DNA of 32,000 nt, from the NCBI RefSeq assembly GCF_019464535.1, contig NZ_CP080507.1, positions 3,720,001 through 3,752,000 of the forward strand, given 5' to 3'. The stretch comes from Horticoccus luteus. GTDB lineage: Bacteria; Verrucomicrobiota; Verrucomicrobiia; Opitutales; Opitutaceae. Shown here in pieces: positions 2,506 through 31,523 of this stretch (positions are counted from its first letter, which is position 1; each line of letters opens with the position of its first letter). A program made the translations under genes and the position numbers. The notes beneath the pieces were generated by a model. That model was not told the DNA's origin and ran no database searches. It was given only the letters and a program-made list of their open reading frames with translations.

Positions 2506-2511
2506 GCGCGA

Positions 2512-2904: not shown

Positions 2905-2936
2905 ATTGATATAGGTTTTAAGGATAGCACTCGACG

Positions 2937-5586: not shown

Positions 5587-5631
5587 GACGAGGGTTCGCT
5601 ATCCCGCGCGTGTTCACGGAACCGAGCATCA

Positions 5632-8025: not shown

Positions 8026-8106
8026 GGGGTGTTGAGGTTGCGCACCGAACGGACGATGCGGCGAGGACCATTTGGCCGGGCGATTCGCACAGACAACGGT
8101 TTGGTT

Positions 8107-8120
8107 ACTAAAACAATTAA
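8107..8120 (-). promoter_or_regulatory. Locus motif copy A: TTAATTGTTTTAGT
   Basis: Read on the minus strand. 81 nt separate it from the ATG of the TonB-dependent receptor (8025), and it points toward that gene. Confidence 0.5.
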
Positions 8121-8144
8121 GGCAATGGTGCGAAAGCCCCGCGC

Positions 8145-8158
8145 TTAAGTGTTTAACT
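8145..8158 (+). promoter_or_regulatory. Locus motif copy B: TTAAGTGTTTAACT
   Basis: Plus strand, 44 nt upstream of the fucP-like ATG at 8203. It faces outward from copy A, 24 nt away. Confidence 0.5.
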
Positions 8159-8202
8159 TCGCCCGTGATTGAGCGCCCGAGCGACCTTTGGAGGCTGCGG
8201 CG

Positions 8203-9567
8203 ATGCCCTCTTTCCCTCCTCCGCCCCCCCGAGCCACGTCGCTCTTTCGCACGGTCGATGGTCGCAACTTCCTCATCCCCTTCCTCCTCGTCAGTTCGTT
8301 GTTTTTAATCTGGGGCTTTTGCAACGGGATGATCGACGTCATGGATAAACATTTCCAGGACCAGCTTCATCTGAGCAAGGCGCAGTCGGCTTGGGTGCAG
8401 TTTTCCCACTATCTCGGCTATTTCCTCATGGCGTTGCCCGCCGGCCTGCTTGCGCGGAAATTTGGTTACAAGCGCGCCATCATCACGGGTCTGTTGGTCG
8501 TCGCCACCGGCGGGATGTGGTTTGTGCCCGCCACTCATATCAACGCGTTCTGGGCGTTTCTGCTCGGCGTGTGCCTGATTTCCATGGGGCTCACGATTCT
8601 GGAGACGGTCGCGAATCCGTATACGACGGTGCTTGGTCCTGACCAATACGCCGCCACCCGCATCAACCTCGCGCAGTCGTGCAACGGGGTGGGGTGGATC
8701 CTCGGACCGATCGTCGGCGGTGCGTTCTTCTACTCGAGCGGCGGCGCGGCGGTCGCGCAGGGACGGCTCTACATTCCCTACGTTGCGGTCTCGGGCATCG
8801 TATTGGTCATGGCGGGCATTTTTGCTTTTTCCTCTCTGCCCGATCTCGTCGCCAGCGCGACATCCGACAACCACCCGTCGGCCGTTGATTCCGACAGGCT
8901 GTCAATCTGGCGGCGTCCGCACTTTGTCGGAGCCGTGGGTGCCCAGTTTGTCTACGTCGCCGCGCAAGCGGGCATCTTCAGTTTTTTCATTAACTATATG
9001 GTCGAGGAGGCACCGCCAGTTTCTTCAGCGTGGGTCGGGAGCTGGTTTCTTCACGGCGGAGCGGCGGTGCGCGATGGTCTGCATTATATCAACGAACAAG
9101 GCGCGAGCCGGCTCTTGGGCGGCATTGGCTTTGTTCTGTTTTTGCTCGGCCGTTTTCTGGGCGCCGGCGTCCTGCGTCGGCAGCCGGCGCATCGCGTGCT
9201 CGGTGTTTGCGCCGTCGGCAATGTCGTGTGCTGCGCACTGGTGGTGGCCCGCGCTGGCTGGATTTCTGTCGCCGCCGTCTTCCTGACGTTTCTCTTCATG
9301 TCGATTATGTTTCCGACGATCTTTGCGCTGGGGATCCACGGCCTCGGCACGCAGGCGAAGAAGGCTTCAGCGTTCATCGTGATGGCCGTCATGGGCGGCG
9401 CAGTGATGCCCAAGTTGATGGGGCATCTCGCCGATATTTATAACATGTCGGTGAGCTTTTTGATGCCCGGTGCCTGCTTCGCCGTGATCGCAACTTACGG
9501 CTTCTTGTGGGCGCGTCTGAAGCGCACCGGCGAGCTCACCAGCGCCGCGGTCCAGCGGGGAGTGTGA
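8203..9567 (+). CDS. fucP: MFS sugar:H+ symporter, L-fucose permease (FucP/GluP) family
   Basis: The product is collinear with E. coli FucP: IPFLLVSSLFLIWGFCNGMIDVM, GLTILETVANPYTTVLGP, RINLAQSCNGVG, MFPTIFALGI. The acidic residues equivalent to FucP D46 and E135 are present. I chose the ATG at 8203 because GGAGG lies 8 nt upstream. The track start at 8188 is a TTG. Confidence 0.85.
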   Translation: MPSFPPPPPRATSLFRTVDGRNFLIPFLLVSSLFLIWGFCNGMIDVMDKHFQDQLHLSKAQSAWVQFSHYLGYFLMALPAGLLARKFGYKRAIITGLLVVATGGMWFVPATHINAFWAFLLGVCLISMGLTILETVANPYTTVLGPDQYAATRINLAQSCNGVGWILGPIVGGAFFYSSGGAAVAQGRLYIPYVAVSGIVLVMAGIFAFSSLPDLVASATSDNHPSAVDSDRLSIWRRPHFVGAVGAQFVYVAAQAGIFSFFINYMVEEAPPVSSAWVGSWFLHGGAAVRDGLHYINEQGASRLLGGIGFVLFLLGRFLGAGVLRRQPAHRVLGVCAVGNVVCCALVVARAGWISVAAVFLTFLFMSIMFPTIFALGIHGLGTQAKKASAFIVMAVMGGAVMPKLMGHLADIYNMSVSFLMPGACFAVIATYGFLWARLKRTGELTSAAVQRGV

Positions 9568-9581
9568 GGCTCGCGGGGCAG

Positions 9582-9595
9582 TTAACTGTTTAACA
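9582..9595 (+). promoter_or_regulatory. Locus motif copy C: TTAACTGTTTAACA
   Basis: Plus strand, 15 nt after the fucP stop and 154 nt upstream of the second GH29 ATG (9750). It is embedded between CGGGG (9574-9578) and CCCCG (9599-9603). Confidence 0.5.
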
Positions 9596-9749
9596 TGACC
9601 CCGTGTTGATGGCGGTGGCGTCGCTGTTCTCCTCTTGGTCCCGTGACGGCTGATCTGCGATGTCTTCGTTGTCGCGCCCTTCCCCCCTCTGTTCACGGGT
9701 TCGTCGCAACTCCCTCGTCCCGTGCCCCTCGCAAAATTTCCCCTCTGCC

Positions 9750-11174
9750 ATGAACCCCTCCCCGCTCTTCTCAACCAAGCTCTTCGCCTGTCTTGCGCTC
9801 GCCTTGCTCGCGAATGCCGTCGCCGCTGCGCCCGGCTCTCCCGCGCCCGTCGAATCGTCCAATGCCACTGACGCGCGCGTGGCGTGGTTTCGCGAAGCGA
9901 AGTTCGGACTTTTCATCCACTGGGGGCTCTACGCGATTCCCGCCGGCTACTGGAAGGGCGCGAAGGTCAACGGCGTGAGCGAGTGGCTGATGAAGCGCGC
10001 GCCGGTCCCGGTCGCCGACTACCAAAAACTCGCGGCCCAATTTGACCCCCAGGCGTTCGACCCCGATGCCTGGGCGCAACTCGCCGTCGACGCCGGCATG
10101 AAGTATGTCGTCCTCACCGCGAAGCACCATGATGGCTTTGCGATGTTCAAGTCCGATGTCTCCGCCTATAACGTCGTCGATGCGACGCCGTTCAAGCGCG
10201 ACATCGTCAAAGAACTCGCCGCGGCGTGCGCGAGGCATGGTCTCCGCTTCGGTGTCTACTACTCTCAGGCCCAAGACTGGCACGAGCCGGGCGGGATGGG
10301 CAACGAATGGGACTTCCCTCCCGATGCGCAGAAGGATTCGGCCGGGGCGTTCGATCGCTATCTGCAACAGAAGGCCGAACCACAGATGCGTGAACTACTG
10401 ACGCGTTATGGGCCGCTCGCCTTGATCTGGTTCGACACGCCTGTGCGGATGAAAGAAGGCGATCGCGCGCAACGTTTCATCGATCTCGTGCGGACGCTTC
10501 AACCCGGTTGCTTGATCAATGGCCGGCTGGGCGGCGAAGGCGATTACGTCAGCACCCGCGACAATCAGATCCCGGACGCGAGTTCCTCCAAACCGTGGGA
10601 GGTGCCCGCCACCACCAACAGCAGTTGGGGTTTCAAACGCGATGATCACAATTGGAAGTCGGCCGGCGATCTGGTTTTCAAGCTCGTCGACATCGCTTCG
10701 AAGGGCGGCAACTATCTCCTGAACGTGGGTCCCGATGCCCACGGCGTCATTCCGGCCGCCGTGCAGGAAAACCTTCGCGCCGTCGGCGCTTGGCTGAAAG
10801 TCAACGGGACCGCTGTCTACGGGACCCAGCCATCGCCCTTCGGTGAAGAATACGGCGAGCTCGCGCAGAAGCTGCGCAACTACGAAAACCAGCCCGTCTT
10901 CCTCCCGTGGCGTGCGTGGCGCTGCACTGCAAGACCCGGCAAGTTGTTCTTCACGCTTTTCGAACTGGAACGCGCGAGTGGTCACGCCAATTTTGCGTTT
11001 CCGGCGTTTAAGAACCGCATCAAAGCCATCCACCTTTTGAGCGACCCGAACCAGAAGTTCGAAGTCACGACCGCGCCAGACGGCCGGCGCGCGTTTCATC
11101 CGCGCACGTTTGGCGCGGACTCGATTGCCGATACCTACGTGGTCGAGATCGAGGGCGATGCGGTGCAACGTTAG
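9750..11174 (+). CDS. GH29 alpha-L-fucosidase
   Basis: The motifs are AKFGLFIHWGLYAIPAG, KHHDGFAMFKS and LIWFDTPV. Starting at the ATG at 9750 gives a Sec-type signal peptide (MNPSPLFSTKLFACLALALLANAVAAAPG). Confidence 0.9.
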   Translation: MNPSPLFSTKLFACLALALLANAVAAAPGSPAPVESSNATDARVAWFREAKFGLFIHWGLYAIPAGYWKGAKVNGVSEWLMKRAPVPVADYQKLAAQFDPQAFDPDAWAQLAVDAGMKYVVLTAKHHDGFAMFKSDVSAYNVVDATPFKRDIVKELAAACARHGLRFGVYYSQAQDWHEPGGMGNEWDFPPDAQKDSAGAFDRYLQQKAEPQMRELLTRYGPLALIWFDTPVRMKEGDRAQRFIDLVRTLQPGCLINGRLGGEGDYVSTRDNQIPDASSSKPWEVPATTNSSWGFKRDDHNWKSAGDLVFKLVDIASKGGNYLLNVGPDAHGVIPAAVQENLRAVGAWLKVNGTAVYGTQPSPFGEEYGELAQKLRNYENQPVFLPWRAWRCTARPGKLFFTLFELERASGHANFAFPAFKNRIKAIHLLSDPNQKFEVTTAPDGRRAFHPRTFGADSIADTYVVEIEGDAVQR

Positions 11175-11349
11175 AACGCGGGTCCGGCATTGGCCGGCGC
11201 GCCTGCTCGTGCGTTTTTCCGCGAGCCGCGAGGCCCAACTTGCCCCGCGTCGCGCGCAAGCACGTTTCGCGTTCACCTGCCGGGGCCGTTCGATTTTCCC
11301 ACGCGCGCGAGCGAACTTCCGTCTCTTAAACCCTGAATTGGATTTGCCC

Positions 11350-12957
11350 ATGAAGATGAAACTCCCCCGCCTGCTGCTGCCCCTGTTTCGCGCGCTCGGC
11401 CTCGCCGCCTTCGCCGCGGCGTCGGCGGGTGCGGCGAAGGTCGCGCCTCCGAACATCGTTTACATTCTCGCCGATGACATGGGCCGCGGCGACATCTCGG
11501 CCTATAACCCACACAGCGCGTGGCCGACTCCGCACATCGACAGCCTCGCGCGTGGGGGCATGCAGTTCGCCGATGCGCACAGCAGTTCGGCGGTTTGCAC
11601 ACCCTCGCGCTACAGCATCCTCACCGGGCGCTATGCATGGCGCAGCCGGCTGAAGGAGCGTGTCGCATTTGGCTATTCCGCCCCGATCATCGAGCCCGGC
11701 CGACTGACCGTGGCGTCGCTCCTCAAAACGCATGGCTACACGACGGCAATGGTCGGCAAATGGCATCTCGGCTTCGACTGGGCGCGCAGCCGCCCGAGCA
11801 ATGCGCCGGCGCAGCTCGACGCATCCGACGAAGAGCCTTCCCAGCGCGCACCGGAGAACAACCCCGCGTTCTCCCGTTGGGTCGACTATACCAAACCGTT
11901 TCGCCAAGGCCCGGTCGACGACGGTTTCGATTCGTTCTTCGGCATCTCCGCGTCTCTCGACATGTTTCCCTACGTGTGGCTGCGCAACGATCGCGTCGTC
12001 GCGCCACCCACCCATGAAATCGCTGGCAGCAAACTCCCCGCCATGTGGCGCGCCGGCCCGATCGCCGACGATTTCGCGCACATTGATGTGCTGCCGCGCA
12101 TCACCACGGAGGCCGTCGACTTCCTGCAGCGGCAGGACGGCCGGCGCCCCTTTTTCCTCTACTTCGCGCTGACCGCTCCGCACACGCCCATCATACCCGC
12201 CCAGGACTTTGCGGGCCGGACCCACACCACGCCCTACGGCGATTTCTGCGTTCAAGTGGATCAAGCGGTCGGCGAAGTGCTGCGCGTGCTCAAGGAACGT
12301 CATCTCGAGGAAAATACGCTCGTGATCTTCGCCGCCGACAACGGCTGCAGCCCAGCCGCGAACTTGCCGCAGTTGCGAACATTTCACCACGATCCGCAAA
12401 TGGGGCTGCGTGGAGCGAAGGCGGATATCTACGAAGGCGGACATCGCATCCCGTTTATCGTCCGCTGGCCCGGCCGCGTCGCCGCCAATTCTCACAACGA
12501 CGCGCTCGTCTGCCAGATCGACTTCATGGCCACCTGCGCCGAGCTTCTTGACACGCCGCTTCCCGCCAATGCCGCCGAAGACAGCGTGAGCCTCCTGCCC
12601 ATTCTCACCGGGAAGTCGGCGCAAGTTCGCGAGACACTCGTCAATCACTCTGTCAATGGCTCGTTCGCGCTGCGGCAGGGCCCGTGGAAGCTTTGCCTCT
12701 GTCCGGATTCGGGCGGCTGGAGCGATCCCAAGCCCGGCAAAGCGCCTCCCGGTTCCCCGCCGTTTCAGCTCTTCAACCTCGACCAAGATTCCGCCGAAAC
12801 GACCAATCTCTACGCTGAACATCCTGAGATCGTCCGGCGTCTCGGCGAACTGCTGAAACAGCAAATACTCCGCGGTCGCACCACCCCCGGCCCGGTCGAA
12901 CAGAATACCGGCGGCGACGATTGGCCCCAGCTCGCATGGATGAAACAATTCCAATGA
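11350..12957 (+). CDS. Sulfatase (S1, Cys-type formylglycine motif), exported
   Basis: NIVYILADDMGRGD is followed by CTPSRYSILTGR, the C-x-P-x-R formylglycine motif. The signal peptide MKMKLPRLLLPLFRALGLAAFAAASAGA appears if translation starts at the ATG at 11350. Confidence 0.9.
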   Translation: MKMKLPRLLLPLFRALGLAAFAAASAGAAKVAPPNIVYILADDMGRGDISAYNPHSAWPTPHIDSLARGGMQFADAHSSSAVCTPSRYSILTGRYAWRSRLKERVAFGYSAPIIEPGRLTVASLLKTHGYTTAMVGKWHLGFDWARSRPSNAPAQLDASDEEPSQRAPENNPAFSRWVDYTKPFRQGPVDDGFDSFFGISASLDMFPYVWLRNDRVVAPPTHEIAGSKLPAMWRAGPIADDFAHIDVLPRITTEAVDFLQRQDGRRPFFLYFALTAPHTPIIPAQDFAGRTHTTPYGDFCVQVDQAVGEVLRVLKERHLEENTLVIFAADNGCSPAANLPQLRTFHHDPQMGLRGAKADIYEGGHRIPFIVRWPGRVAANSHNDALVCQIDFMATCAELLDTPLPANAAEDSVSLLPILTGKSAQVRETLVNHSVNGSFALRQGPWKLCLCPDSGGWSDPKPGKAPPGSPPFQLFNLDQDSAETTNLYAEHPEIVRRLGELLKQQILRGRTTPGPVEQNTGGDDWPQLAWMKQFQ

Positions 12958-13005
12958 GTCCGTGCACCTGAGCTGAGCGCTTTCTCCAACGCGCGCCCGC
13001 TCACC

Positions 13006-14430
13006 TCATGGTTCACCCCAGACCGCCGGCACCTTAAAATCTCTGGAGATGGGCGCCTGCTTGGACGGCACGGCCGCCTTCGCATAAGCCGAAAGCTTCC
13101 GCTGCAGTTCCGCCACTTTCTCCGGATTCTTCGCCGCAAGATTCGTCGTCTCGTTCGGATCGCTGCGCAAATCGAACAACTCGATGACCGGGGCCGCCAA
13201 GGCCTGTGCTTTGAGATCCTTTCTGGCCTCCGTCACTGTGCCGCCTTCCTCGCCATCCTTGACCTGCCCGTTGACAACCAGCTTCCAATCTCCGATGCGC
13301 ACCGCGCCGCCCGTTGTCGTGATGTTCAGCAAAATGTCCTCGTGCGGCGACGCCGCGCACGCGGCGATGGTCGGCCACGCATCGCGACCGTCGAGCGGAT
13401 GATCCGTGCTTGGCGACTGCGCACCGGCCAGTTTCGCCAGCGTCGGAAACCAATCCACCATGTGCAGCACCGCTGGCACGACGGAACCGGCTTTGATCTT
13501 CCCGTCCCACACCACAACGGCCGGCACCCGCACGCCGCCTTCATACAGCGAGCCCTTGCCCCCGCGCAGCGGACCATTACTCGTCACGACTCCGGGCAGC
13601 GGCCCGCCATTGTCGGAGCAGAAAACGATCAACGTGTTTTCCCGCAGGCCCTTTTCGTCCAGGGTGCGCAGGATTTGGCCAATGCCCTCGTCCATGGCCG
13701 CCACCATGCCCGCGTAAATCCGGCGGCGCCCGGTCATGGTTTGGTAGGGCGCTTCATAGCTTTCCGGCACCTGCCATGGCCCGTGCACCGCATTGAAGGG
13801 CACGTAAAGAAAAAGCGGCCGGCCTGGATCGTGGGCGGCGATGATGCGGGAGGCTTCCTGCGCGATCAGCGTCGTCGAATACCCCTCCTCGTGCAGCGCA
13901 TGATCGTCCCGGTGCCAGTCGAGGCCGCCATCCCGCCGATGGGTGAAGTAATCGAAGTTTCCGTTATACAATCCGTATTGATGCTCAAAACCACGGTGCG
14001 TCGGGAGGTAGGCGGGTTTGACGAGGCCCAAGTGCCACTTACCGGTGATGGCGGTTTCATAGCCCACGTCGTGCAACGCCTGCGCCAGCGTGCGCTCATC
14101 GAGCGGCAATCCGTATTGCGCAAACGGCCGCACCACTCCGATCTGCAATCCGTAGCGGATCGGATAACGGCCCGTCAGAAGCGCGGCGCGGGTCGGCGAG
14201 CAGAGCGGCTGCACGTAAAACTGCTCGAGCCGCGCGCCTTCCTTCGCGAGCCGGTCAATGTTCGGGGTCCGGATTTCGCTCCCGTGGAATCCGACATCCC
14301 CCCACCCTTGATCGTCGGCGAGTAGGAAAAGAATGTTCGGGCGAGGCGCCGGCGCGGAAGGCGCTCCGCGCAACCCAGTAACGGCGACCAACACCAGAGC
14401 GACGGCAAAAACGGAGACGTTTGTTTTCAT
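13006..14430 (-). CDS. Sulfatase (S1, Cys-type), arylsulfatase B / N-acetylgalactosamine-4-sulfatase-like, exported
   Basis: NILFLLADDQGWGD is followed by the CSPTRAALLTGR motif. The signal peptide is MKTNVSVFAVALVLVAVTG. The gene lies 20 nt downstream of the preceding sulfatase gene. Confidence 0.9.
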   Translation of the reverse strand: MKTNVSVFAVALVLVAVTGLRGAPSAPAPRPNILFLLADDQGWGDVGFHGSEIRTPNIDRLAKEGARLEQFYVQPLCSPTRAALLTGRYPIRYGLQIGVVRPFAQYGLPLDERTLAQALHDVGYETAITGKWHLGLVKPAYLPTHRGFEHQYGLYNGNFDYFTHRRDGGLDWHRDDHALHEEGYSTTLIAQEASRIIAAHDPGRPLFLYVPFNAVHGPWQVPESYEAPYQTMTGRRRIYAGMVAAMDEGIGQILRTLDEKGLRENTLIVFCSDNGGPLPGVVTSNGPLRGGKGSLYEGGVRVPAVVVWDGKIKAGSVVPAVLHMVDWFPTLAKLAGAQSPSTDHPLDGRDAWPTIAACAASPHEDILLNITTTGGAVRIGDWKLVVNGQVKDGEEGGTVTEARKDLKAQALAAPVIELFDLRSDPNETTNLAAKNPEKVAELQRKLSAYAKAAVPSKQAPISRDFKVPAVWGEP

Positions 14431-14450
14431 CGGGGAAATTTAGTGCGCGT

Positions 14451-16217
14451 CTATTCCAAGAGCCGCGCTTCGACGTAAAACGCTCCGCGCGATTTGCCCG
14501 CTGCGTCGTCCGACAACCACGTCTGCATCTTGGCAGGACCGGCTCGCAGCTTCAGCGAAAGCGTCACGCTGGTCGCACCTGCGGGAACGACCACCGAGGC
14601 CTCCTGATCACCGACGATGATTCGCGCCCGATTGGCCTGAAGACGGAAATGCGCCTCCGCGGGTTCCTGCCGCAGCGTGAACGCATACCGTCCCGGTTTC
14701 GCTACCTCGATCATCCAGTAGCCGTTCACCCAACGCGCTTCCTTGATCTGCTCCTGGTTCCAGGGGACTTCTTTTTGGTCGGGTGCATGCCAATCCATGC
14801 AATCGATCATCGTAGGATTCTCTTGGGGCGCCCCGACTTCAATATAGGCGAAGCGTTTCAACGCCGGAGCAAGTGAAGCCCACCATGTCTCGTAACGCGC
14901 CCGCAACTTCGCCACCACGTCCGGATGGTCCGCGGCGACATTTTTCTCCTGCCCGGGATCGCGCGTAATGTCATAGAGTTCCCGGCCGTTGTTATAACGC
15001 CAACGGTCCGTCATCACTGCGCTGTGCTCCCATTTCGGGGGAATGTCTGCGCGTTGGCGATGGACGAACAACGTTCGCTCCGGCCACACCGCCGCCGGGT
15101 CTCGCAATAGGGCGGCCAGGCTGGTCCCGTCGAATTGCACCTGCGACGGCTTTGGCAACCGGCAAAGGTCGATCAACGTCGGCAGCAGGTCGATGTGCGC
15201 CGTCAGTTGGTTCACATCGCGCCCGCCTTCTACTCCGCCGCGCGGCCAGCGGATGAAGCACGGCGTGCGATGGCCGCCGTCGTATTCAGATCCCTTGACG
15301 CCTCGCATCCCCGCGTTGAAGCCCGGCCAGCTTCCCGGCGGCGGCGGTGGTGCGCCAAACCGATTGGCCCCGGCTACGCCCGCCGCAGTGCCATTGTCCG
15401 AGGCAAAGATCAGAATGGTGTTTTCCGCGAGGCCCAACTCTTGCAACCGCGCCCGCAGACGTCCCAGGTTTTCATCCATGTTCGCGATCATGCCGTAGAA
15501 ACTGTCCATCGGCCGCGGGACGCCTTTTTCCGTGTAAGGCTGGGTATAGCGTTCCGGCACGATGTAGGGAGCATGCGGAACATTGGTGGCGATGTAGGCG
15601 AAAAAGGGCCGATCCTTGTTGGCCTCGATAAACTGAAGCGCACGGGAGAAAAATACGTCCGTGCAGTAACCGTGACATTTTTCCAAGCGGCCGTTGTGCC
15701 GGTAAGTGTCGTCGATGTAGTCGTTGCCCCAGTGATCCGGCGTCTGACCAATCCCGCCGCCGCCAAACGTCACCGTTTCCTCAAAACCGCGATCCTCCGG
15801 CCGCAGCGGATAATTGTCGCCCAAATGCCATTTGCCGAACATCGCCGTGCGGTAGCCCGCCGACTTGAACACGTCGGCCATCGTCACCTCGTCGCGATAC
15901 ATCAGCGACCGCCCCATGATCGTGTGCCAGACGCCCGTGCGGGTGGAATAGCGCCCTGTCATCAAGGCCGCGCGGGTCGGCGCACAGGTTGGATCAACAT
16001 GGAAATTCGTCAGTCGCACACTCTCCGCGTGGAGCCGGTCCAAGTTCGGCGTGCGGATCATCCTGTTACCCAGGCACGCTACGTCTCCGTAGCCTTGGTC
16101 GTCGGTTAAAACAATAATGACATTGGGCGCCCGGTTCGTGTGCGCGGAAGATTCCGCCGCGCGCGCACCCCCAGGCAAACATGCCGCCAACAGTGCAATG
16201 AACAGAGCAATTTTCAT
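14451..16217 (-). CDS. Sulfatase (S1, Cys-type) with a C-terminal extra domain, exported
   Basis: NVIIVLTDDQGYGD is followed by the CAPTRAALMTGR motif. The ATG at 16217 gives the signal peptide MKIALFIALLAACLPGGARA. The C-terminal region of roughly 150 aa lies beyond the sulfatase core. Confidence 0.9.
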   Translation of the reverse strand: MKIALFIALLAACLPGGARAAESSAHTNRAPNVIIVLTDDQGYGDVACLGNRMIRTPNLDRLHAESVRLTNFHVDPTCAPTRAALMTGRYSTRTGVWHTIMGRSLMYRDEVTMADVFKSAGYRTAMFGKWHLGDNYPLRPEDRGFEETVTFGGGGIGQTPDHWGNDYIDDTYRHNGRLEKCHGYCTDVFFSRALQFIEANKDRPFFAYIATNVPHAPYIVPERYTQPYTEKGVPRPMDSFYGMIANMDENLGRLRARLQELGLAENTILIFASDNGTAAGVAGANRFGAPPPPPGSWPGFNAGMRGVKGSEYDGGHRTPCFIRWPRGGVEGGRDVNQLTAHIDLLPTLIDLCRLPKPSQVQFDGTSLAALLRDPAAVWPERTLFVHRQRADIPPKWEHSAVMTDRWRYNNGRELYDITRDPGQEKNVAADHPDVVAKLRARYETWWASLAPALKRFAYIEVGAPQENPTMIDCMDWHAPDQKEVPWNQEQIKEARWVNGYWMIEVAKPGRYAFTLRQEPAEAHFRLQANRARIIVGDQEASVVVPAGATSVTLSLKLRAGPAKMQTWLSDDAAGKSRGAFYVEARLLE

Positions 16218-16303
16218 GATGGGGATTGGCACGACCAAGGCCCCCGCAGCGAGGACCCGCGCGGGAGGTTTGCGACGATCCATTCAGCCGCAAATCCCGT
16301 GTC

Positions 16304-16317
16304 CCTCTAACAATTAA
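16304..16317 (-). promoter_or_regulatory. Locus motif copy D: TTAATTGTTAGAGG
   Basis: Minus strand. 86 nt separate it from the sulfatase ATG at 16217, and it points toward that gene. Confidence 0.45.
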
Positions 16318-16351
16318 GCGCTCCGGCAACGCGTCCGCGCCGTTCGCCGAT

Positions 16352-16365
16352 TTAACTGATACAGT
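16352..16365 (+). promoter_or_regulatory. Locus motif copy E: TTAACTGATACAGT
   Basis: Plus strand. It faces outward from copy D, 34 nt away, and lies 275 nt upstream of the esterase ATG at 16641. Confidence 0.4.
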
Positions 16366-16640
16366 CACGCATGGGTTGAAACCCAACGCGCGGCAGCCGT
16401 TCTGATTTTCTCCGAGCGACGGCCATCACCGGCGCTCCCCCTATCTCGATACCCACATGCCCGGCCGGGCGAATTGAAATCCTCCTGTGGCAACACATGA
16501 CCCACGAAGACCCTGCCATCTTTCCGACCCACTTATCGCAGCCGTCCACCGCGGGCATTGCGGTTAATCATAAAAGACTGCACGCGGCATCCATCACGAT
16601 CAACGCAGCCACGCCTTCCGGAGCGTCCACTACCACGACC

Positions 16641-17543
16641 ATGTTGATCCCATCCCGCACCTCGTTCGCGTGCGCACTGCTATCCGGGCTCTGCGCTTGG
16701 CTCGCACTGCCCGCCACATTACGCGCCGCCGCTTGGCCGAGCGAAGTCGTGGGCGACGCACAGGTTTACAAACAGACCGAGGACGGACCGCAAAAGCTCT
16801 ATGTGCTCGAGCCCGACGACTGGAAGCCTACCGACCGGCGGCCGGCGATCGTGTTTTTCCACGGTGGCGGATGGGTGGGCGGACCGCTGTCGCAATTCAA
16901 CGACCAAAGCCGCTATTTTGCGTCGCGCGGGTTGGTATGCATCCAAGTGCAATACCGCGTGGTTCATCCGCACACGACGACTCCCCCCATCGTGTGCATT
17001 GAAGACGCCCGCTCGGCGATGCGTTGGGTTCGTCAACACGCTGGGGCACTCGGCGTCGATTCGCACTGCATTGCCGCGGCCGGCGCATCCGCCGGTGGCC
17101 ATCTTGCGGCGCACACTGCGCTTGTCGCCGGCGTCGATGACCCATCCGACGATCTGACGATTTCTCCGCGACCGGACGCGCTGCTTCTTTTCAATCCTGT
17201 GCTCGACAACGGCCCGGGAGAATATGGCGCCGAACGCGTGCGGGATCGCGTTGCCGAACTGTCGCCCGCCGCCAACGTCCGCCGCGGCGCGCCGCCCACG
17301 GTGCTGTTTCTGGGGACTACGGACCCTCTCGTGCCGGTGGCGACTCTGCAACGTTTTCGCACCGCGATGCTCGCTGCCGGCGCGCGCTGCGAATTGCATC
17401 TCTACGCCGGCCAGACTCACGGATTTTTCAACCGCTCGAAGTCCGTCAAGTATTACAAGCTCACCCTCCACGAATGCGCCGCGTTTCTCACGTCGCTCGG
17501 CTGGCTGCCGGTCGACGCTCCGAACCTTCCATCGACACCCTAA
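16641..17543 (+). CDS. Alpha/beta-hydrolase esterase (HGGG / GxSxG, family IV / HSL-like), exported; candidate glycan deacetylase
   Basis: The oxyanion motif is VFFHGGGWVGG and the nucleophile elbow is GASAGGH. A candidate Asp (GTTDPLVP) and His (GQTHGF) follow. The ATG at 16641 gives the signal peptide MLIPSRTSFACALLSGLCAWLALPATLRAAA. Confidence 0.8.
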   Translation: MLIPSRTSFACALLSGLCAWLALPATLRAAAWPSEVVGDAQVYKQTEDGPQKLYVLEPDDWKPTDRRPAIVFFHGGGWVGGPLSQFNDQSRYFASRGLVCIQVQYRVVHPHTTTPPIVCIEDARSAMRWVRQHAGALGVDSHCIAAAGASAGGHLAAHTALVAGVDDPSDDLTISPRPDALLLFNPVLDNGPGEYGAERVRDRVAELSPAANVRRGAPPTVLFLGTTDPLVPVATLQRFRTAMLAAGARCELHLYAGQTHGFFNRSKSVKYYKLTLHECAAFLTSLGWLPVDAPNLPSTP

Positions 17544-17634
17544 CGCCCGGCAGCGCGCGTCTCGCAGGAACGCAGCTCCGCGCGCGCACAAACTGGGCTT
17601 TCGCTGAGCTGAGCCTACCGGTGATCGCCGAGTC

Positions 17635-19647
17635 TCAGTCCCACTGCGTAAGCGCCTTCGCCGCGGCATCCTCCGACACGTGGTCCCGTGATGTCACTGA
17701 TGCGGTTCGCGCGCCCGGCTCCCAGTTTTTTCCGCCCCGCTCGTAGGCGCCAATATCTGGCGCCCGTCCCACGACCTTGCCGGTGATTCCGTCAATCACC
17801 GTCCCGGCATCGATCAAGGCTGAACCTGCCCGCGGCCGGAAATCGAAATGGGCCGGATCAGCGAGCTGGGACTGCGCGCCCGCGGCGAGTTCCGCGGACA
17901 CAAAGTTATGGTCAATGCCGTCCTGCAGCGGGAAAGGGGTGCCGACGCGATCGCACGTGAATGTGGTCACCGCATTGTTTTCCGCGCGCGTGTGCTGATT
18001 CTGCACCGCGAGGAGCGGCGTCGTGCTGCGGGCCCAAGGCTTGTGCGGTTCCGGTTCAGTGTGCAGACTAAGACCGTTGCCACCGAAGCGGCCCGTGCCG
18101 ATTCCGAACACCGTGTTGTAACTCACTTCGTTGAAATCGCCCTTTACGATAATGCCGTCACGATCGCAGTCCCACACCACGTTGTGATGCACGATCAACC
18201 CGCGCGTCTGGTCATCGCCGCGAATGCCCAGTCCGCCGGTCAATCCTCCCGCGAAGACGTACGGTCGACAGCCATGCACCCAATTATAGCGGACGACCGA
18301 GCCAGCCACGCGCGGTGAACCGCCTTGCACGAGGGCAACATCCTTGGCGACGCGCCCGCCGTCATGAATGTCGCAATACTCGATCACGTTGCCCGGCCCG
18401 GCATGGCGCACCAGTGTGTTGCCGCCGTCGAAAATCGTGCAGTGCCGTAACGTGTTGCCCCGGGTTTTGTCGTCGTCTGGATGGTCGATCGAAACGACCG
18501 CGTAGGCCAGTGATCCGTCCCAGCATGCGTCATGGATAACGCAATCCTCGATCAGATTCTGCGATCCCCGCACCAGTAGGCCGCTAGTGTTCGCTCCGCT
18601 GATCGTGCAATGCCGCAACACATTCCGATCTCCATCGATCGCGGTCCGGTCGTCCGCCTGTTCCGCGGCCGGCTCCGACATGTGGAACGCGTAGACAGGA
18701 TGACGCAGCTCGCAGTCCGCGATTTCATTGTCGTCACCGCGCACTTGGACGGTGCACCCGACAAAACGAAAGCCGCGCACAGTAATATGATGGGCACCGT
18801 CGATGCGCAGCCCAAGGGCGCGGCGCTTGACCGTCACCGGCAAACGATTCGGATCAGCGCCTCCGGGCGCCCAGAAATACAACCGCGACGCCGGAGCATC
18901 GAAAAACCATTCACCGGGCGCATCAAGCGCCTCCAGCTTGCCGACGAGGTAGAAGCGATCGTCTTCCCACTCGGTCGTCTTGTCGGCATAGTTCGTGATC
19001 GGAGTGAGATCCCGCGCGTAAGTGAACGCCCCGCGCGCCGTGTCGCAGGCTTGCACGCGGCGCGTCCACGTCAGGAATTGGTGCGCGACATTCAACACCG
19101 CGGTCGCGCCGGTCCAATCGACGTGCGTCTCGGCCAGCGCGGGGTCGATTACCAAACCGTAACGGCTGCCGAGCCCAGTGGAAGCCCACGTGTTGCGGTC
19201 CCAGCGGTTATGCGGATTAGCATTCGGCCAGCGGGCCCACGTCTGCTGCTCTTCGCCCACAAAAACCTGCCGCACAGGACCGGCGAGTTCGATCACATGG
19301 ATTCTTTCGCGATAGACTTGCCAAGCGCCTCTGAGCAGATCGCTCCCGTCGATTATCACGTCTCCGTCGCCCGCCGCGGCGTAGGTGATGGAGGCATTCG
19401 CAGTTCCGCTCCGCTGCAGATGCAGCGTTTCCCGATAGGTGCCTGCATGCACGAGACATTTATCGCCGGGCGCCAGCGTTTTCCCGGCGCGGGCCAACGT
19501 CCGCCACGGCATCTTGGCTGTGCCCGCCGCATCGTCCGCCCCGTGGGGACTGACATGAAATGTCGCGGCCGCAGCGGTCAGTGTCACGGCGCCCACCACG
19601 CCCCCGAGAATCGCGCGCAGGAATTTCGTAGGTGGTGATAAAGTCAT
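17635..19647 (-). CDS. Secreted right-handed parallel beta-helix (PbH1) repeat protein, family unassigned
   Basis: A signal peptide is followed by FHVSPHGADDAAGTAKMPWRTLARAGKTLAPGDKCLVHAGTYRE, a DUF1565/pectate-lyase-fold N-terminal cap. Many N-x-(I/V)-x-x-C-x-I-x-D style repeats follow. The gene starts 3 nt after the upstream beta-helix gene. Confidence 0.75.
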   Translation of the reverse strand: MTLSPPTKFLRAILGGVVGAVTLTAAAATFHVSPHGADDAAGTAKMPWRTLARAGKTLAPGDKCLVHAGTYRETLHLQRSGTANASITYAAAGDGDVIIDGSDLLRGAWQVYRERIHVIELAGPVRQVFVGEEQQTWARWPNANPHNRWDRNTWASTGLGSRYGLVIDPALAETHVDWTGATAVLNVAHQFLTWTRRVQACDTARGAFTYARDLTPITNYADKTTEWEDDRFYLVGKLEALDAPGEWFFDAPASRLYFWAPGGADPNRLPVTVKRRALGLRIDGAHHITVRGFRFVGCTVQVRGDDNEIADCELRHPVYAFHMSEPAAEQADDRTAIDGDRNVLRHCTISGANTSGLLVRGSQNLIEDCVIHDACWDGSLAYAVVSIDHPDDDKTRGNTLRHCTIFDGGNTLVRHAGPGNVIEYCDIHDGGRVAKDVALVQGGSPRVAGSVVRYNWVHGCRPYVFAGGLTGGLGIRGDDQTRGLIVHHNVVWDCDRDGIIVKGDFNEVSYNTVFGIGTGRFGGNGLSLHTEPEPHKPWARSTTPLLAVQNQHTRAENNAVTTFTCDRVGTPFPLQDGIDHNFVSAELAAGAQSQLADPAHFDFRPRAGSALIDAGTVIDGITGKVVGRAPDIGAYERGGKNWEPGARTASVTSRDHVSEDAAAKALTQWD

Positions 19648-19650
19648 AGG

Positions 19651-21918
19651 TTATCCCCGATCTTTGCTGGTGGCGGTTTGCTGCAGATCGATCGGCGACG
19701 TGCGTTTCAGTCGCTCCACCATCGGCTCCCGCAGCAGTCCGACATGGGTCGTGTCCACGGAGTGAATCCCGAGCGCCTCGGCCGGTGAATTCTCGCCAAA
19801 ACGAAAGTCGCCGTGCGCGGCGTCGCGAAACTGAGGATCGCCGATGCGACTCGCGCGATCATTACCCCACGCCCGCTGCATGCCCTGGATAAACGCTTCC
19901 GCGCCCACCCGGTCCGACGTGCTGAACAGATTGTGATCGGTCTTCGGCGGGACGATCGGCTTATGGTCGGGGTTGTAATTGCCGAGCATCGTATCACCGG
20001 GAGCGTTCCCGAAATAGCTGTTCACGGTATCAACTTCGTAGAATCGACTCTGGCCGGTGTAGGAAACGTAAACATTCCTTTCGACCCGAGAGTCGGGGCG
20101 GTCCGAGGTAATGCGCAGCCCCCCGTTCACCATGATATTGTTCCAAGTGGCATTGAAGTCCTTGATCACGATCCCGACGCCGAAAGTCACATTGTCGGTG
20201 ATCGTGCAATAGGATTGATCATCATCCGTGCGGATCGCGGCGGACCCGCCCATGTTGTAAATGACGTTCCGCTGGATGACGTTTCCCTTCCCTGCACTGG
20301 AGAGGTAGATCCCATTGCCGTCGCGCAACACCTGCATCGCATCGTGAATCTCGTTATCGCGCACCACGTTGTCACGGGTGTGCGCAAATGGCAGAATCGC
20401 CTCGGTCGTGCGCGGGTTGCCTATTTCGCGCCAGCGCATCAGGCGGAGGTTTTCGCGGAGGTTCGGGGGAAATTCCGGCCGCGGCACTTTCGGCGTCGCG
20501 ATGGCGAAATAGCGCGGCCGCACCCCGTCAAGGACCATCCCGTTATAGGGCAGATCATGCAGATAATTATGCGCCACGAGATTTCCTCCGCTTTGCCAGA
20601 GGAACACCGCGGGCGCGTGCCACCACAACTCACCCAAGTGATGAAATTCGTTGTCCACGATCTCATCGCCGCCGTTCACGTCTCGCGTGCCGGGCCCATA
20701 ACCGCACAGCAACACGCCGCCCGCGCCCAAATGGCGAAACGTGTTGCCACGTATCTCGAGGGCACGCGCGTAAAGGTCGGCCCGGATACCTTGCCCTCCC
20801 GCCGCCTCGAAGATGCAGTCGCGCACCGCACAATTTTCCGCCACCCGGAAGCGCAGGCAGGCATCGTCCTTGTCCCACATCGCCCAGTCGTGCTGCAGTC
20901 CGGCATCGTCGCCGCGCCAGGCATCGCGATCGGTGTGCGCAAAGGTCAGACCGACAAACTCGACCCCGCGCACCGGCTCGTCCGGAGCACCACCGCAGCC
21001 TTCCTCTCCAGCCACACGCACGAGCGTCGTGACGGCGGGAGCCACGATATTCGGTCCGGGCTCCGCACCGCGCGGCCAAAAATAAACGCGCCCTTCGGCG
21101 CGACGGAGCACCCACTCGCCCGGCGTATCCAGCGACTCGATTACGTTCTCCACCCAAAATTCACCCGTGGGCGTATACGTGGCCGGAAGCGTGGTGCGCG
21201 CCGTCAGCGCCGCTTCGTCCACCGATGCCAGTGAGAGGTAGTTCACCAGCCAGTTGTGGTTGGGACGGCTGAGAATCTCCACGTCGTCCAAATTCGGCCA
21301 CGATTTGATCGACCCCGCGGGAAACTCGATCACATCGCGCTTTTGCAGGCGGTCCGCCAATCCGCGGTGCTTGCCACGCGCGAGATAGCGCGCCGAACGC
21401 GCCCGCGGGAGACGCTCCATCTCGTCGTAAAGCGTGCGAAACGCCCGGCCGTGCAACGCCTCCGGCACGCTCGCCATCCATAATTTGCCGCGCGCCGCTT
21501 CCGCGGTGCCTGCGGGTTCCTCGCCGCTGGCCACGCGCGTCCAGCTCCGGATCGGCACGCCCCCGCTCACAATCGCGCGCCCGCCCGCAGACTCAAAACT
21601 TAGCACCCCGCCGGTTGCGGGCGTATCCTCGCGTCCGAGCACCAACGGCGCCGCGAGCCGGTAGATGCCATCGGCCAGCAGGATGTGGATACGCGCGCCC
21701 GCATCGGCGGCCCGCGCCGCCCGCGCCAACGCCATTGCGCGCGGCAACGTTGCCACGGGTGCCCCGGCTCCTCCCGACGCCCCGTCGTCGCCCCGCGGCG
21801 ACACATGTATCCGCGTGTCCTCTCGCGCGACCAGCGTCGCCGGCTCTCCTCCCCACAAAACGGGCGCGGTGAGCGCCGCCAAATGAACCCAACGAAAAAG
21901 CGAAGAGCGAAACATCAT
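19651..21918 (-). CDS. Secreted right-handed parallel beta-helix repeat protein, family unassigned
   Basis: The ATG at 21918 gives the signal peptide MMFRSSLFRWVHLAALTAPVLWG. Next comes IHVSPRGDDGASGG..ATLPRAMALA. Repeated beta-helix rungs follow (NCAVRDCIFE, IRGNTFRHLG, IVDNEFHHLG, NVVRDNEIHD, NVIQRNVIYN). Confidence 0.75.
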   Translation of the reverse strand: MMFRSSLFRWVHLAALTAPVLWGGEPATLVAREDTRIHVSPRGDDGASGGAGAPVATLPRAMALARAARAADAGARIHILLADGIYRLAAPLVLGREDTPATGGVLSFESAGGRAIVSGGVPIRSWTRVASGEEPAGTAEAARGKLWMASVPEALHGRAFRTLYDEMERLPRARSARYLARGKHRGLADRLQKRDVIEFPAGSIKSWPNLDDVEILSRPNHNWLVNYLSLASVDEAALTARTTLPATYTPTGEFWVENVIESLDTPGEWVLRRAEGRVYFWPRGAEPGPNIVAPAVTTLVRVAGEEGCGGAPDEPVRGVEFVGLTFAHTDRDAWRGDDAGLQHDWAMWDKDDACLRFRVAENCAVRDCIFEAAGGQGIRADLYARALEIRGNTFRHLGAGGVLLCGYGPGTRDVNGGDEIVDNEFHHLGELWWHAPAVFLWQSGGNLVAHNYLHDLPYNGMVLDGVRPRYFAIATPKVPRPEFPPNLRENLRLMRWREIGNPRTTEAILPFAHTRDNVVRDNEIHDAMQVLRDGNGIYLSSAGKGNVIQRNVIYNMGGSAAIRTDDDQSYCTITDNVTFGVGIVIKDFNATWNNIMVNGGLRITSDRPDSRVERNVYVSYTGQSRFYEVDTVNSYFGNAPGDTMLGNYNPDHKPIVPPKTDHNLFSTSDRVGAEAFIQGMQRAWGNDRASRIGDPQFRDAAHGDFRFGENSPAEALGIHSVDTTHVGLLREPMVERLKRTSPIDLQQTATSKDRG

Positions 21919-22001
21919 GGGGCAGGAAGGTGGGGATACGCAACGCGGGACGGGGCGGGACCAGCGCACCTTGCGTGCAGCGACGCCGCAACCAAGGCGC
22001 G

Positions 22002-22015
22002 ACTAAATCAGTTAA
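22002..22015 (-). promoter_or_regulatory. Locus motif copy F: TTAACTGATTTAGT
   Basis: Minus strand. 83 nt separate it from the beta-helix operon ATG at 21918. It lies 23 nt downstream of the LacI-family stop codon. Confidence 0.5.
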
Positions 22016-22031
22016 CGATTTTCCAAATCGT
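22015..22031. promoter_or_regulatory. Perfect inverted repeat ACGATTT-TCC-AAATCGT abutting motif copy F
   Basis: The 7-nt arms are perfectly complementary with a 3-nt spacer. It overlaps motif F by 1 nt and ends 7 nt from the LacI stop (22039-22041). The AT-rich stem is too weak and short-looped to be a good intrinsic terminator. Confidence 0.35.
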
Positions 22032-22038
22032 CCACTGG

Positions 22039-23103
22039 TCACCGCGGCTCGCGCGCTTTCTTTCGCGCGGCCGGCAAACCCCGCACCGTGCGGCCTTCCT
22101 GCCACGTGCCGTCCACGTGCGTGCCATGCGGCACGGCGTTGAAACCGCGCTGGTTGCTCTGGAGCAAGCTGTTCAATATCTCGACGGCAAATTCCCCCAT
22201 TTCGCTGCGATGCTGCTGGATCCCGCTCGCCTGCGGCACGTCGTCCGCGACATTCAAACTCGCGTAACCGATGTCCTGCGGGATGCGCAAACCTTCAGCG
22301 CGCACCGCTTCAAAAAAACCATCCGAGCGGCTGATGACCGCCTCCGGGCGTTCCCGCCGCAGCCAGCTTCGAATCTGTCCCACCGGATCCTCCGGCTGCA
22401 GCACGAGCGCCGATACCCGATTCGCCTCCAGCGTGCGCGACTGCAGATAAGCGTAACCCGCCTCCCATTGGTGCAGCGTGCGATCAGAGAGATCCGTCCA
22501 CACGATGATCCCGATCCGCGTGTAGTTGCGCGCGCGCAGTTGCTCCCACGCCAGCAAAATGCCCGCGAAGTGGTTCGGCACGATGTGATGAAACAACGGA
22601 TATTGCACTGGCCGCTCCAGCGCGACGACCGCGAAGTCCTTCCACTCCAGATCGAGCCGGTCGCGCGGATCTTCGAACGGCGCGAGAATCACGCCCCGGA
22701 TGCCGCGGTTGCGCAGCACCGCGCTGAACCGCCGCGCCGAACACCCCTGTTCGCGCGCCCAGAAGACCTGCAGCGAATACCCGAGCGACCGCGCGCGCAA
22801 CGTTACGCCTTCGATCGCCTGCTTCGCACTTGTCCGCGTCGTCCACGCATCCCGACTCGACCAGTTCGTCACGAGCGCGATCACCGAAAAATCCCGATGC
22901 ACCCGCAGGCGGCTGCGGTGCGCGGCCAGCGCCGACAACCCCGGATCCGGCGCGTAATTCAGCTCCCGCGCCATCGCCTTCACCTTCGCCGTCGTCGCCG
23001 CCGAAATCGAAGGATGGTTGCGCAACGCCAGCGACACCGCCGCCACGCTCAGGCCCAGCCGCCCGGCAACATCCTTCAAAGTGGTGCGTTTTTCCCAGCT
23101 CAC
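22039..23103 (-). CDS. LacI-family transcriptional regulator
   Basis: The N-terminal HTH is TTLKDVAGRLGLSVAAVSLALRNHPSISAATTAKVKAMARELNYAPD. A periplasmic-binding-protein-like effector domain follows. The start codon is a GTG at 23103. Confidence 0.9.
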   Translation of the reverse strand: MSWEKRTTLKDVAGRLGLSVAAVSLALRNHPSISAATTAKVKAMARELNYAPDPGLSALAAHRSRLRVHRDFSVIALVTNWSSRDAWTTRTSAKQAIEGVTLRARSLGYSLQVFWAREQGCSARRFSAVLRNRGIRGVILAPFEDPRDRLDLEWKDFAVVALERPVQYPLFHHIVPNHFAGILLAWEQLRARNYTRIGIIVWTDLSDRTLHQWEAGYAYLQSRTLEANRVSALVLQPEDPVGQIRSWLRRERPEAVISRSDGFFEAVRAEGLRIPQDIGYASLNVADDVPQASGIQQHRSEMGEFAVEILNSLLQSNQRGFNAVPHGTHVDGTWQEGRTVRGLPAARKKAREPR

Positions 23104-23117
23104 TTAATTGATTTAGC
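23104..23117 (+). promoter_or_regulatory. Locus motif copy G: TTAATTGATTTAGC
   Basis: Plus strand. It directly abuts the LacI GTG start codon and lies 49 nt upstream of the GTG start of the cytoplasmic sulfatase (23167). Confidence 0.5.
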
Positions 23118-23120
23118 GGA

Positions 23121-23136
23121 GTGCGACTTTTCGCAC
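23121..23136. promoter_or_regulatory. Inverted repeat GTGCGA-CTTT-TCGCAC between motif G and the sulfatase start
   Basis: The 6-nt arms are perfect with a 4-nt spacer. It lies in the 63-nt lacI/sulfatase divergent region. It could be an operator or a 5'-UTR hairpin. Confidence 0.3.
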
Positions 23137-23166
23137 CGGATTCACCACGTCAACGTAATTGCTCCC

Positions 23167-27896: not shown

Positions 27897-27976
27897 GCTC
27901 CGTTGTCGCTCCCACCGGCGCGCGACGCAACTCCCCTTGCGGCGACACGCCGCCGCGCTTTACCTCTTCCGCTTCG

Positions 27977-29089: not shown

Positions 29090-29134
29090 CCCGTGCGCAT
29101 CCGCGCGTCTTACTCCCCTTTTCCTGCCCCGCTC

Positions 29135-31495: not shown

Positions 31496-31523
31496 CGGCG
31501 CGCGCTCGCCCACGGTTCCTCCC

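Follow-up and report, generated by a model that had tools for sequence, protein, structure and literature searches.

In a 32,000-nucleotide stretch of the Horticoccus luteus genome (contig NZ_CP080507.1, positions 3,720,001 to 3,752,000, forward strand; hereafter the window), seven copies of an AT-rich 14-bp motif are distributed over a sulfated-fucose degradation cluster rich in sulfatases and fucosidases between 8.1 and 23.1 kb. Our analysis indicates that this motif is a real, conserved regulatory element and a familiar kind of switch, its unusual features being uniform placement upstream and fixed orientation. The best candidate for the protein that reads it is a predicted LacI-family regulator of 354 amino acids encoded within the cluster (22039–23103, minus strand), recognized by Pfam and by similarity to solved structures. 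Tentatively, and with a little less than even confidence, we interpret the seven copies as operators of this regulator that lie upstream of the core promoter and activate it. The regulator would bind seven 14-bp pseudo-palindromes of the form c-TTAA-n-T|G-w-TT-n-AG, each a LacI-type AAnCGnTT core with its central CG turned into TG, located 11 nt (from operator position 13) upstream of a TTGnnn hexamer taken as the −35 element of the target promoter. It would leave the core promoter uncovered at all seven target units and act on RNA polymerase from upstream, most likely by positive control, as CcpA does at ackA/pta or Cra at ppsA, and probably in a form loaded with a sugar-derived ligand. The same protein would repress its own gene through the copy at its GTG start codon and transcription start region (site G).

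The invariant core of the motif, TTAANTGNTNNA, occurs exactly seven times in the window compared with 0.10 matches expected from shuffled sequences, and the seven matches have the coordinates and strands reported in a preliminary description of the locus, which had been made from the sequence alone. All copies are intergenic, as described there, and the distances it gave to the start codons (81, 86 and 83 nt for sites A, D and F; 44 and 49 nt for sites B and G) are correct. When the whole window was scanned with a weight matrix, the seven sites scored 13.4–21.9 bits, while the next-best match in the 32 kb reached 8.0 bits and fell within a coding region. Hence, the motif is confined to the cluster at 8.1–23.1 kb and does not occur in the Hsp20, DUF488 and aminotransferase genes that flank it or in the large open reading frames (ORFs), in agreement with the earlier claim that genes outside the locus lack it. 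Two details of that description require revision. The IUPAC string proposed for the motif, TTAANTGWTWNAST, matches four of the seven copies, since sites C, D and G break it at positions 13–14; and TTAA, which had been called scarce, is rare in absolute terms (31 copies in the window), yet not depleted relative to base composition (36 expected).

Operator positions are numbered here from 0 to 13, so that the operator begins one base earlier than the motif as first described (positions 1–14). Operator A (CTTAATTGTTTTAG; 8108–8121, minus strand), with four of seven symmetric pairs, lies upstream of a minus-strand unit (3646–8025) consisting, by Pfam, of a TonB-dependent receptor (5632–8025) and a GH29 fucosidase (3646–5586), and operator B (CTTAAGTGTTTAAC; 8144–8157, plus strand) lies upstream of the gene for an MFS (FucP-like) transporter (8203–9567, plus strand). 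Operator C (GTTAACTGTTTAAC; 9581–9594, plus strand; five of seven symmetric pairs) precedes a GH29 fucosidase and a sulfatase (9660–12957, plus strand). The weakest copy, operator D (CTTAATTGTTAGAG; 16305–16318, minus strand; 13.4 bits), precedes a pair of sulfatases (13006–16217, minus strand), and operator E (TTTAACTGATACAG; 16351–16364, plus strand) precedes an alpha/beta-hydrolase esterase gene (16497–17543, plus strand). Operator F (GTTAACTGATTTAG; 22003–22016, minus strand) is situated 22 nt past the LacI stop codon and upstream of a pair of beta-helix (GH141-like) proteins (17635–21918, minus strand), where it forms a conserved island in our alignment A2. Finally, operator G (CTTAATTGATTTAG; 23103–23116, plus strand; five of seven symmetric pairs) precedes the cytoplasmic sulfatase, which lacks a signal peptide, together with a sodium:solute (SSF) symporter (23167–26180, plus strand). 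The motif had been said to head every unit of the locus, which holds for these seven; the LacI gene is an eighth unit with no copy directed toward it, though site G touches its start codon.

The motif had also been judged non-palindromic and, for this reason, unlike a LacI operator. A shift of one base changes this picture: in the new register the motif reads c-TTAA-n-Y|G-n-TT-n-AG, an even 14-bp pseudo-palindrome with the core AAnYGnTT, and cores of this type are typical of LacI-family operators. The partial dyad symmetry in register 0–13 had gone unnoticed in the preliminary description, as had a conserved TTG at positions 25–27 that is considered below. The invariant positions of the motif fall on the symmetric pairs T1:A12 and A4:T9, and mostly also on A3:T10 and C0:G13. 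The copies in the window are degenerate, with TG at their center and two to five of the seven pairs symmetric. Many orthologous loci have C at position 6, where the window copies have T (TTAAGCGATTCAGT and TTAAACGTTTAAGT are examples), and perfect CG-centered 14-bp palindromes occur in relatives, namely CTTAAACGTTTAAG in L008 and CTTAAGCGTTTAAG in L023, L039, L048 and L050. Because the TG and CG forms are found together in the genome of L008, both are probably read by a single protein; the covariation seen between recognition helix and motif variants is only suggestive, given this coexistence within one genome. An odd palindrome centered on position 9 (AACTG-TTT-CAGTT) was considered and dropped, since the CG-centered variants and the perfect palindromes set the center between positions 6 and 7. 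Five loci (L031, L035, L036, L038 and L045) carry a variant, TTGAAACAGTTCAA or CTGAAACAGTTCAA, approximately 60–170 nt upstream of LacI, in which TTGAA half-sites replace TTAA and which the pattern of the preliminary description missed. We therefore broadened the half-site of the family to CT(T/G)AA; the family-wide operator consensus is CT(T/G)AAnYGnTT(A/C)AG. In a survey of 1303 LacI-family regulators, 1251 have even palindromes as operators, with CG as the central pair in 1173 of these and another central pair in 49 (PMC4052901). The corresponding design, an even palindrome of 14–22 bp with a central CG, is found across the family described here, in which the window copies are degenerate, TG-centered members.

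To place the motif in a wider context, we fetched 80 loci with homologues of the window LacI gene (~1.2 Mb), chosen by LacI similarity. These related loci, together with a single metagenome scan, served to approximate genome-wide specificity, H. luteus itself being represented by 32 kb. The pattern TTAAnYGnTnnA yielded 112 sites in the 1.2 Mb, of which 51 fall in the 3% of bases adjoining the ends of the LacI gene, where 3.4 would be expected (15-fold enrichment). A site adjoins the LacI gene in five of five loci with LacI identity above 70%, in 23 of 52 loci at 43–70% identity, and in three of 23 loci below 43%, which hold distant paralogues. L001–L005 likewise have the LacI gene flanked by counterparts of sites G and F, and in the aligned orthologous spacers (A2 and A3) conservation is limited to the motif, the TTGCnG that follows it, and the LacI start codon. 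The preliminary description had named conservation in orthologous loci as a check on the motif, and the motif is indeed conserved in spacers of dozens of loci, leaving a phylogenetic footprint upstream of sulfatase and TonB-receptor orthologues.

Since the sites follow the LacI gene from genome to genome, the best candidate binder is the LacI-family protein encoded alongside them. This runs counter to the earlier suggestion that the motif belongs to a different regulator or is a specialized promoter element. The motif could be read by a regulator encoded elsewhere in the genome, with the proximity of the LacI gene reflecting shared membership of a regulon; the co-occurrence is partly built in, as the loci were fetched by LacI similarity, the window sites are weakly symmetric (2–5/7 pairs), and the recognition helix (SVAAVSLALRN) and hinge of the local protein are unlike those of RbsR, PurR and LacI. 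We nevertheless consider such a regulator very improbable. The sites have the core and the even-palindrome design of the LacI family, their presence declines with LacI identity, and they abut the LacI start codon with single-base precision in 11 loci spanning 53–87% protein identity. Moreover, the motif-bearing locus (8.1–23.1 kb) contains no regulator gene other than the LacI-family gene.

The contact at the LacI start codon is made by site G. The GTG start codon of LacI contributes its first G to the outermost base pair of operator G (position 0), and the string TCAC-TTAA is invariant in the A3 alignment (window positions 23101–23116), which comprises the window, L001–L005, L011, L023, L026, L030 and L046. 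The LacI gene starts with GTG in all 11 of these loci, and the operator may constrain the choice of start codon. The overlap suggests that the LacI gene is autoregulated via site G, so that the co-localization of sites with the regulator gene would include an autoregulatory one; autoregulation is found in over three quarters of local LacI-family regulators (PMC4052901). On the LacI strand, TTGACG (23148–23153, minus strand) lies 45–50 nt upstream of the start codon within a block, GTCAACGTAATT, that is conserved in L001–L004. With this hexamer as the candidate LacI −35 element, operator G would be situated at or just past the LacI transcription start, the classical position for autorepression.

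The product of this gene is predicted to be a LacI/GalR-family member by both its DNA-binding and its effector domain: it contains a LacI helix-turn-helix domain (PF00356, residues 8–53, E = 5e-12) and a Peripla_BP_3 effector domain (E = 1.7e-8), its residues 7–311 align with RbsR, and full-length similarity extends also to the PurR and LacI structures. The sequence is 100% identical to that of the H. luteus protein. Within residues 15–66, the recognition helix reads SVAAVSLALRN in place of the usual ...TVSRVLN, and the arginine of VSRVLN is absent. In the canonical hinge helix of the family, a leucine lever enters the central CpG step. Aligning the hinge region with RbsR or PurR requires insertions of four and three residues, and the position of the lever residue is ambiguous. 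The DNA-reading head is atypical for the LacI family, which fits an unusual operator without proving the connection. Among the relatives, seven loci with LacI orthologues of 52–54% identity (L032, L040, L042, L043, L044, L047 and L049) have a recognition helix of the form S-L-S-A-(V/I)-S in place of S-V-A-A-V-S, and no site could be detected close to their LacI genes; L024 (51% identity; S-V-S-A-V-S) lacks a site as well. Specificity may have shifted inside this LacI subfamily.

At six of the seven window sites, a TTGnnn hexamer starts exactly 10 nt past the end of the 14-nt motif (11 nt from operator position 13); positions 25–27 begin with TT in all seven copies and read TTG in six. In window DNA, TTG has a probability of ~0.011 of standing at a given offset, which by our arithmetic gives ~1e-11 for six of seven. 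The hexamers are TTGTCT at site A (8091–8096, minus strand), TTGAGC at site B (8169–8174, plus strand), TTGATG at site C (9606–9611, plus strand), TTGCGG at site D (16288–16293, minus strand), TTGAAA at site E (16376–16381, plus strand), and TTGCGG at site F (21986–21991, minus strand), where TTGCnG is kept in L001–L005. At site G the same position is occupied by TTTTCG (23128–23133, plus strand), which is TTTCCG in L001–L004 and becomes TTG in more distant relatives. Among 68 strict sites in relatives, T is present at position 25 in 47 and at position 26 in 46, and G at position 27 in 33. Of 112 related sites, 51 have their first TTG past the motif at a gap of 10 or 11, and another seven have it at a gap of 19 or 20, one helical turn farther.

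Eleven promoters of AT-richer relatives carry a complete TTGACA at this place, and a (T/C)A-type hexamer such as TAACAG, CATATC or TATCAC often comes 18 nt after it. For this reason we infer that the TTG(ACA) block is a sigma-70-type −35 element of the target promoter. With the TTG as −35, the center of the operator would lie near −54, or near −64 in the second spacing class. An extended −10 element (TGnTAnAAT-like) was considered as an account of the motif and dropped, because the would-be −11 position is mostly T and TTGACA is found downstream instead. For the two-sulfatase unit, the hexamer at 16288–16293 makes ATG 16217 a better start codon than ATG 16283. Between hexamer and start codon, the MFS gene has 34 nt (from the T of TTGAGC to ATG 8203) and the cytoplasmic sulfatase gene 39 nt (to GTG 23167), and orthologues of the latter in the CG-type clade have 37–38 nt; sulfatase promoters with such short distances were found in L023, L030, L033, L034, L037, L039 and L048. 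Distances this short suggest that in Opitutaceae the mRNAs of these genes have little or no leader. Despite this, the MFS gene has a GGAGG 8 nt before its ATG.

The strict orientation noted in the preliminary description is confirmed. When sites were collected with a strand-neutral symmetric search and oriented by the downstream TTG alone, the central pair was TG in 31 and CA in three, and the promoter-distal outer base was T in 47 of 57 sites versus 23 of 57 for its proximal counterpart. The orientation of the operator is thus real and tied to the promoter, with the better-conserved CTTAA half always on the promoter-distal side. A position just upstream of a likely −35 element would explain this strict orientation.

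Strict orientation, fixed spacing to a −35-like hexamer, and an AT-rich block at the position of an UP element are also what a bare promoter element without a dedicated regulator would show, whether UP-like and read by the alpha subunit of RNA polymerase or recognized by an alternative sigma factor for polysaccharide-utilization genes. UP elements, however, are A/T tracts between −59 and −38 that lack dyad symmetry and occur at strong promoters generally, whereas the motif is symmetric, with perfect palindromes in relatives, has a sequence specificity far above that of UP elements, and serves a single cluster, being absent from all window promoters outside the locus. Promoters of the extracytoplasmic function (ECF) type have their own −35/−10 pair in place of the housekeeping elements, for example an AAC-containing −35 and a CGT-type −10; here, position 5 of the motif is variable and the accompanying downstream hexamer is of the housekeeping TTGACA type. 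In addition, site G sits against the LacI start codon, with no promoter role for the LacI gene apparent. We regard a bare promoter element as very improbable, and even when it is pooled with a different regulator the two together remain unlikely.

Returning to the LacI-family protein as an activator, three features of the sites suggest that it works through RNA polymerase and does not simply occlude the promoter: the inferred core promoter is free of any target operator, divergent promoters each have a site of their own at an unvarying distance, and a second spacing class lies one helical turn away. If the TTG is a −35 element, as the TTGACA of relatives implies, the arrangement is that of a class I-type activated promoter, with a site upstream of the −35, no overlap, and a fixed helix face. 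Looping between the paired sites of divergent regions was dropped as an explanation, because their center-to-center distances are 38–59 bp and up to 207 bp without phasing, and sites C and F are unpartnered.

The same operators and the same binder could instead belong to a conventional repressor released by an inducer, a serious possibility that we rate slightly lower. From near −54, such a repressor could block the alpha subunit's C-terminal domain from an AT-rich, UP-like stretch or make a GalR-like inhibitory contact; alternatively, the −35 assignment may be off and the operator may overlap the core promoter. All eight promoters, the regulator's own included, would then be freed by an inducer that comes from sulfated fucan. 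The motif is the only AT-rich stretch in spacers of 62% GC and occupies the UP-element position, and the perfect TTGACA in the promoters of relatives could be a strong −35 in need of repression. A promoter scan of the window spacers found neither a −10 element nor a transcription start. Nearly all characterized local LacI-family sugar regulators repress, and most are autoregulated (PMC4052901); in the lev operon, a LacI-family site upstream of the promoter represses (PMC3463425). For a repressor, the observed geometry is harder to account for: at all seven target units the operator stays clear of the inferred −35 hexamer and of everything downstream of it, divergent promoters each have their own site at a fixed distance in place of one shared site over the core promoters, and a second spacing class one helical turn out is unneeded for simple blocking. 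We slightly favor activation over repression, by analogy with characterized activators, since elsewhere in the LacI family such a geometry goes with activation.

Several observations weigh against activation by the local regulator. Local LacI-family sugar regulators are overwhelmingly repressors released by an inducer, which sets the prior against activation. The consensus sigma-70 scan of the window spacers found no recognizable −10 hexamer or canonical promoter pair, and site G carries TTT rather than TTG at the hexamer position. In a general −35 test in relatives, TTGACA was ~5-fold enriched upstream of genes in both orientations, the sense copies being nearly all in these same promoters. 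About half of the loci with a LacI protein of 43–70% identity have no strict site adjoining the gene, and, since the loci were collected by LacI similarity, a second co-localized regulator would be compatible with the data.

The genes downstream of sites in relatives define a recurrent regulon. Most frequent are orthologues of the cytoplasmic sulfatase (25) and TonB receptors (21), accompanied by other sulfatases and beta-helix proteins, and also by GH2, MGH1-like hydrolase, aldo-keto reductase and SMP-30-type lactonase genes. These downstream genes were annotated by homology to window proteins because a greedy ORF caller mis-calls genes in GC-rich DNA. In L056, whose LacI homologue is 44% identical, sites precede an aldo-keto reductase gene and an SMP-30/gluconolactonase-type gene (2093–3133 and 6474–7626). 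Enzymes of these two types belong to non-phosphorylative L-fucose catabolism, which hints that the effector is derived from fucose. In the metagenome scan, which was not selected on LacI, we searched for CTTAAYTGWTTYAG-N11-12-TTGACA and obtained 57 matches. AT-rich contigs (GC <0.47) account for 48 of these, with no sulfatase nearby and in approximately the number that base composition predicts by our estimate; in contigs with GC of at least 0.47, eight of nine evaluable matches lie directly upstream of a sulfatase gene, and three of these sulfatase-linked loci also carry a LacI orthologue.

Extended beyond the window, our reading is that this LacI subfamily, with its unusual recognition helix and hinge, may be a dedicated, position-dependent activator of sulfated-glycan utilization genes that is widespread in Opitutales. 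It would use an asymmetric operator in one orientation, ~54 bp or one helical turn further upstream of each transcription start, to recruit RNA polymerase, and would repress its own gene through the site that shares its start codon. We offer this generalization as possible rather than probable.

Some relatives show further arrangements around the LacI gene. In L009 (2935–3234), L010 (11083–11376) and L012 (11074–11323), a site past the LacI gene lacks the TTG block, and a PAS-AraC regulator gene lies approximately 235–285 nt beyond it, with a conserved GTGTCGTTTTTAMACAATA-like block in between; these loci may contain a regulatory cascade. In L013 (~60–150), L015 (~6540–6622) and L057 (~9860–9940), a conserved block, aacatcgctcctgcgtcgctggat, follows the LacI-proximal site and points away from LacI. 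This block has no obvious ORF start; two of the three loci have ATC as the in-frame codon. Toward LacI, the same loci have a TTGATC or TTGAAC hexamer just 6 nt from the operator, a geometry that differs from that of the target promoters.

A Pfam search of the window proteins confirmed the gene content of the cluster. The flanking genes encode two Hsp20 proteins, a DUF488 protein and an aminotransferase; two large ORFs also flank the cluster, and none of these has a motif site. Neither of the two long ORFs, 27380–30406 (minus strand, 1008 amino acids) and 30425–31678 (minus strand, 417 amino acids), had a Pfam match at E ≤ 0.001; one of them had been labelled GH78-like in the preliminary description. 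An Rfam search of the 5′ regions returned no known RNA. The greedy ORF caller is unreliable in the GC-rich DNA of the window as well: a 961-codon open frame (21685–24570, plus strand) runs antisense across the entire LacI gene and into the sulfatase gene. Simple ORF callers are misled by this frame, which GC-rich DNA produces as an artefact, and the true start of the sulfatase is GTG 23167.

Sulfated algal and plant glycans have important degraders in the Verrucomicrobia of the order Opitutales. To our knowledge, almost nothing has been reported of how they switch on their glycan genes or of their promoters, and we know of no substantial work charting promoter architecture or the regulation of polysaccharide utilization in Verrucomicrobiota at large. 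The present analysis supplies for Opitutales a candidate regulator, an operator model, a conserved regulon, and a first promoter landmark in the TTG(ACA) at a fixed distance from the operator. The regulon conserved across the order comprises sulfatases, a TonB-dependent receptor, GH29 fucosidases, beta-helix enzymes and transporters, with fucose-catabolic-type enzymes in relatives. If activation holds, a local catabolic regulon would be under positive control throughout, with a LacI-family protein in the unusual role of its dedicated activator. The motif could also help to predict co-regulated glycan-degrading genes in metagenome-assembled genomes of the clade.

Comparison with known systems places the proposed switch among several precedents. 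The UP element is an AT-rich segment between −59 and −38 of strong sigma-70 promoters. The motif resembles it in AT-richness and in position relative to the −35, and departs from it in being highly sequence-specific, symmetric, restricted to a single regulon, and linked to a regulator gene. GalR bound at the external gal operator OE, centered at −60.5, represses through the alpha subunit of RNA polymerase, and full gal repression also uses a second operator inside galE and DNA looping. In both cases a LacI-family dimer upstream of the −35 would alter promoter activity by contact and not by occlusion, as we propose here; unlike at gal, the window weight matrix scan found no second, downstream operator at the promoters.

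Local LacI/GalR-family regulons as surveyed in RegPrecise-type reconstructions (Ravcheev et al. 2014, PMC4052901) share with the present one an even pseudo-palindromic operator with an AAnCGnTT core, sites 30–140 bp upstream of start codons, and a regulator gene that lies within the cluster of carbohydrate-utilization genes and has its own site. The phylum Verrucomicrobiota is unmentioned in the main text of that survey. The operators described here differ in that the central pair in the Horticoccus clade is TG, not CG, in that CTTAA/CTGAA takes the place of the common TGnAA as outer half-site, and in that every target promoter has the site in a fixed orientation at one fixed distance upstream of the −35-like hexamer. 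The Escherichia coli regulator FruR (Cra) is a class I activator at −45.5 of ppsA, and its outcome depends on operator position relative to the promoter (PMC7897506). Like the operators described here, those of Cra are asymmetric, with one well-conserved and one degenerate half; Cra differs in being a global carbon-flux regulator with the half-site TGAAAC, and the operator in H. luteus lies ~9 bp further upstream. A further parallel is CcpA of Bacillus subtilis, where cre sites upstream of the −35 bring about CcpA-dependent, helix-face-dependent activation of ackA, pta and ilvB (PMC3463425). As at those genes, the predicted LacI-family dimer site lies just upstream of the −35, here in two spacing classes about one turn apart. 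CcpA, by contrast, is a global regulator that requires HPr-Ser-P and represses most of its targets, whereas in the local regulon, for which activation is proposed by analogy, every target promoter has the upstream arrangement.

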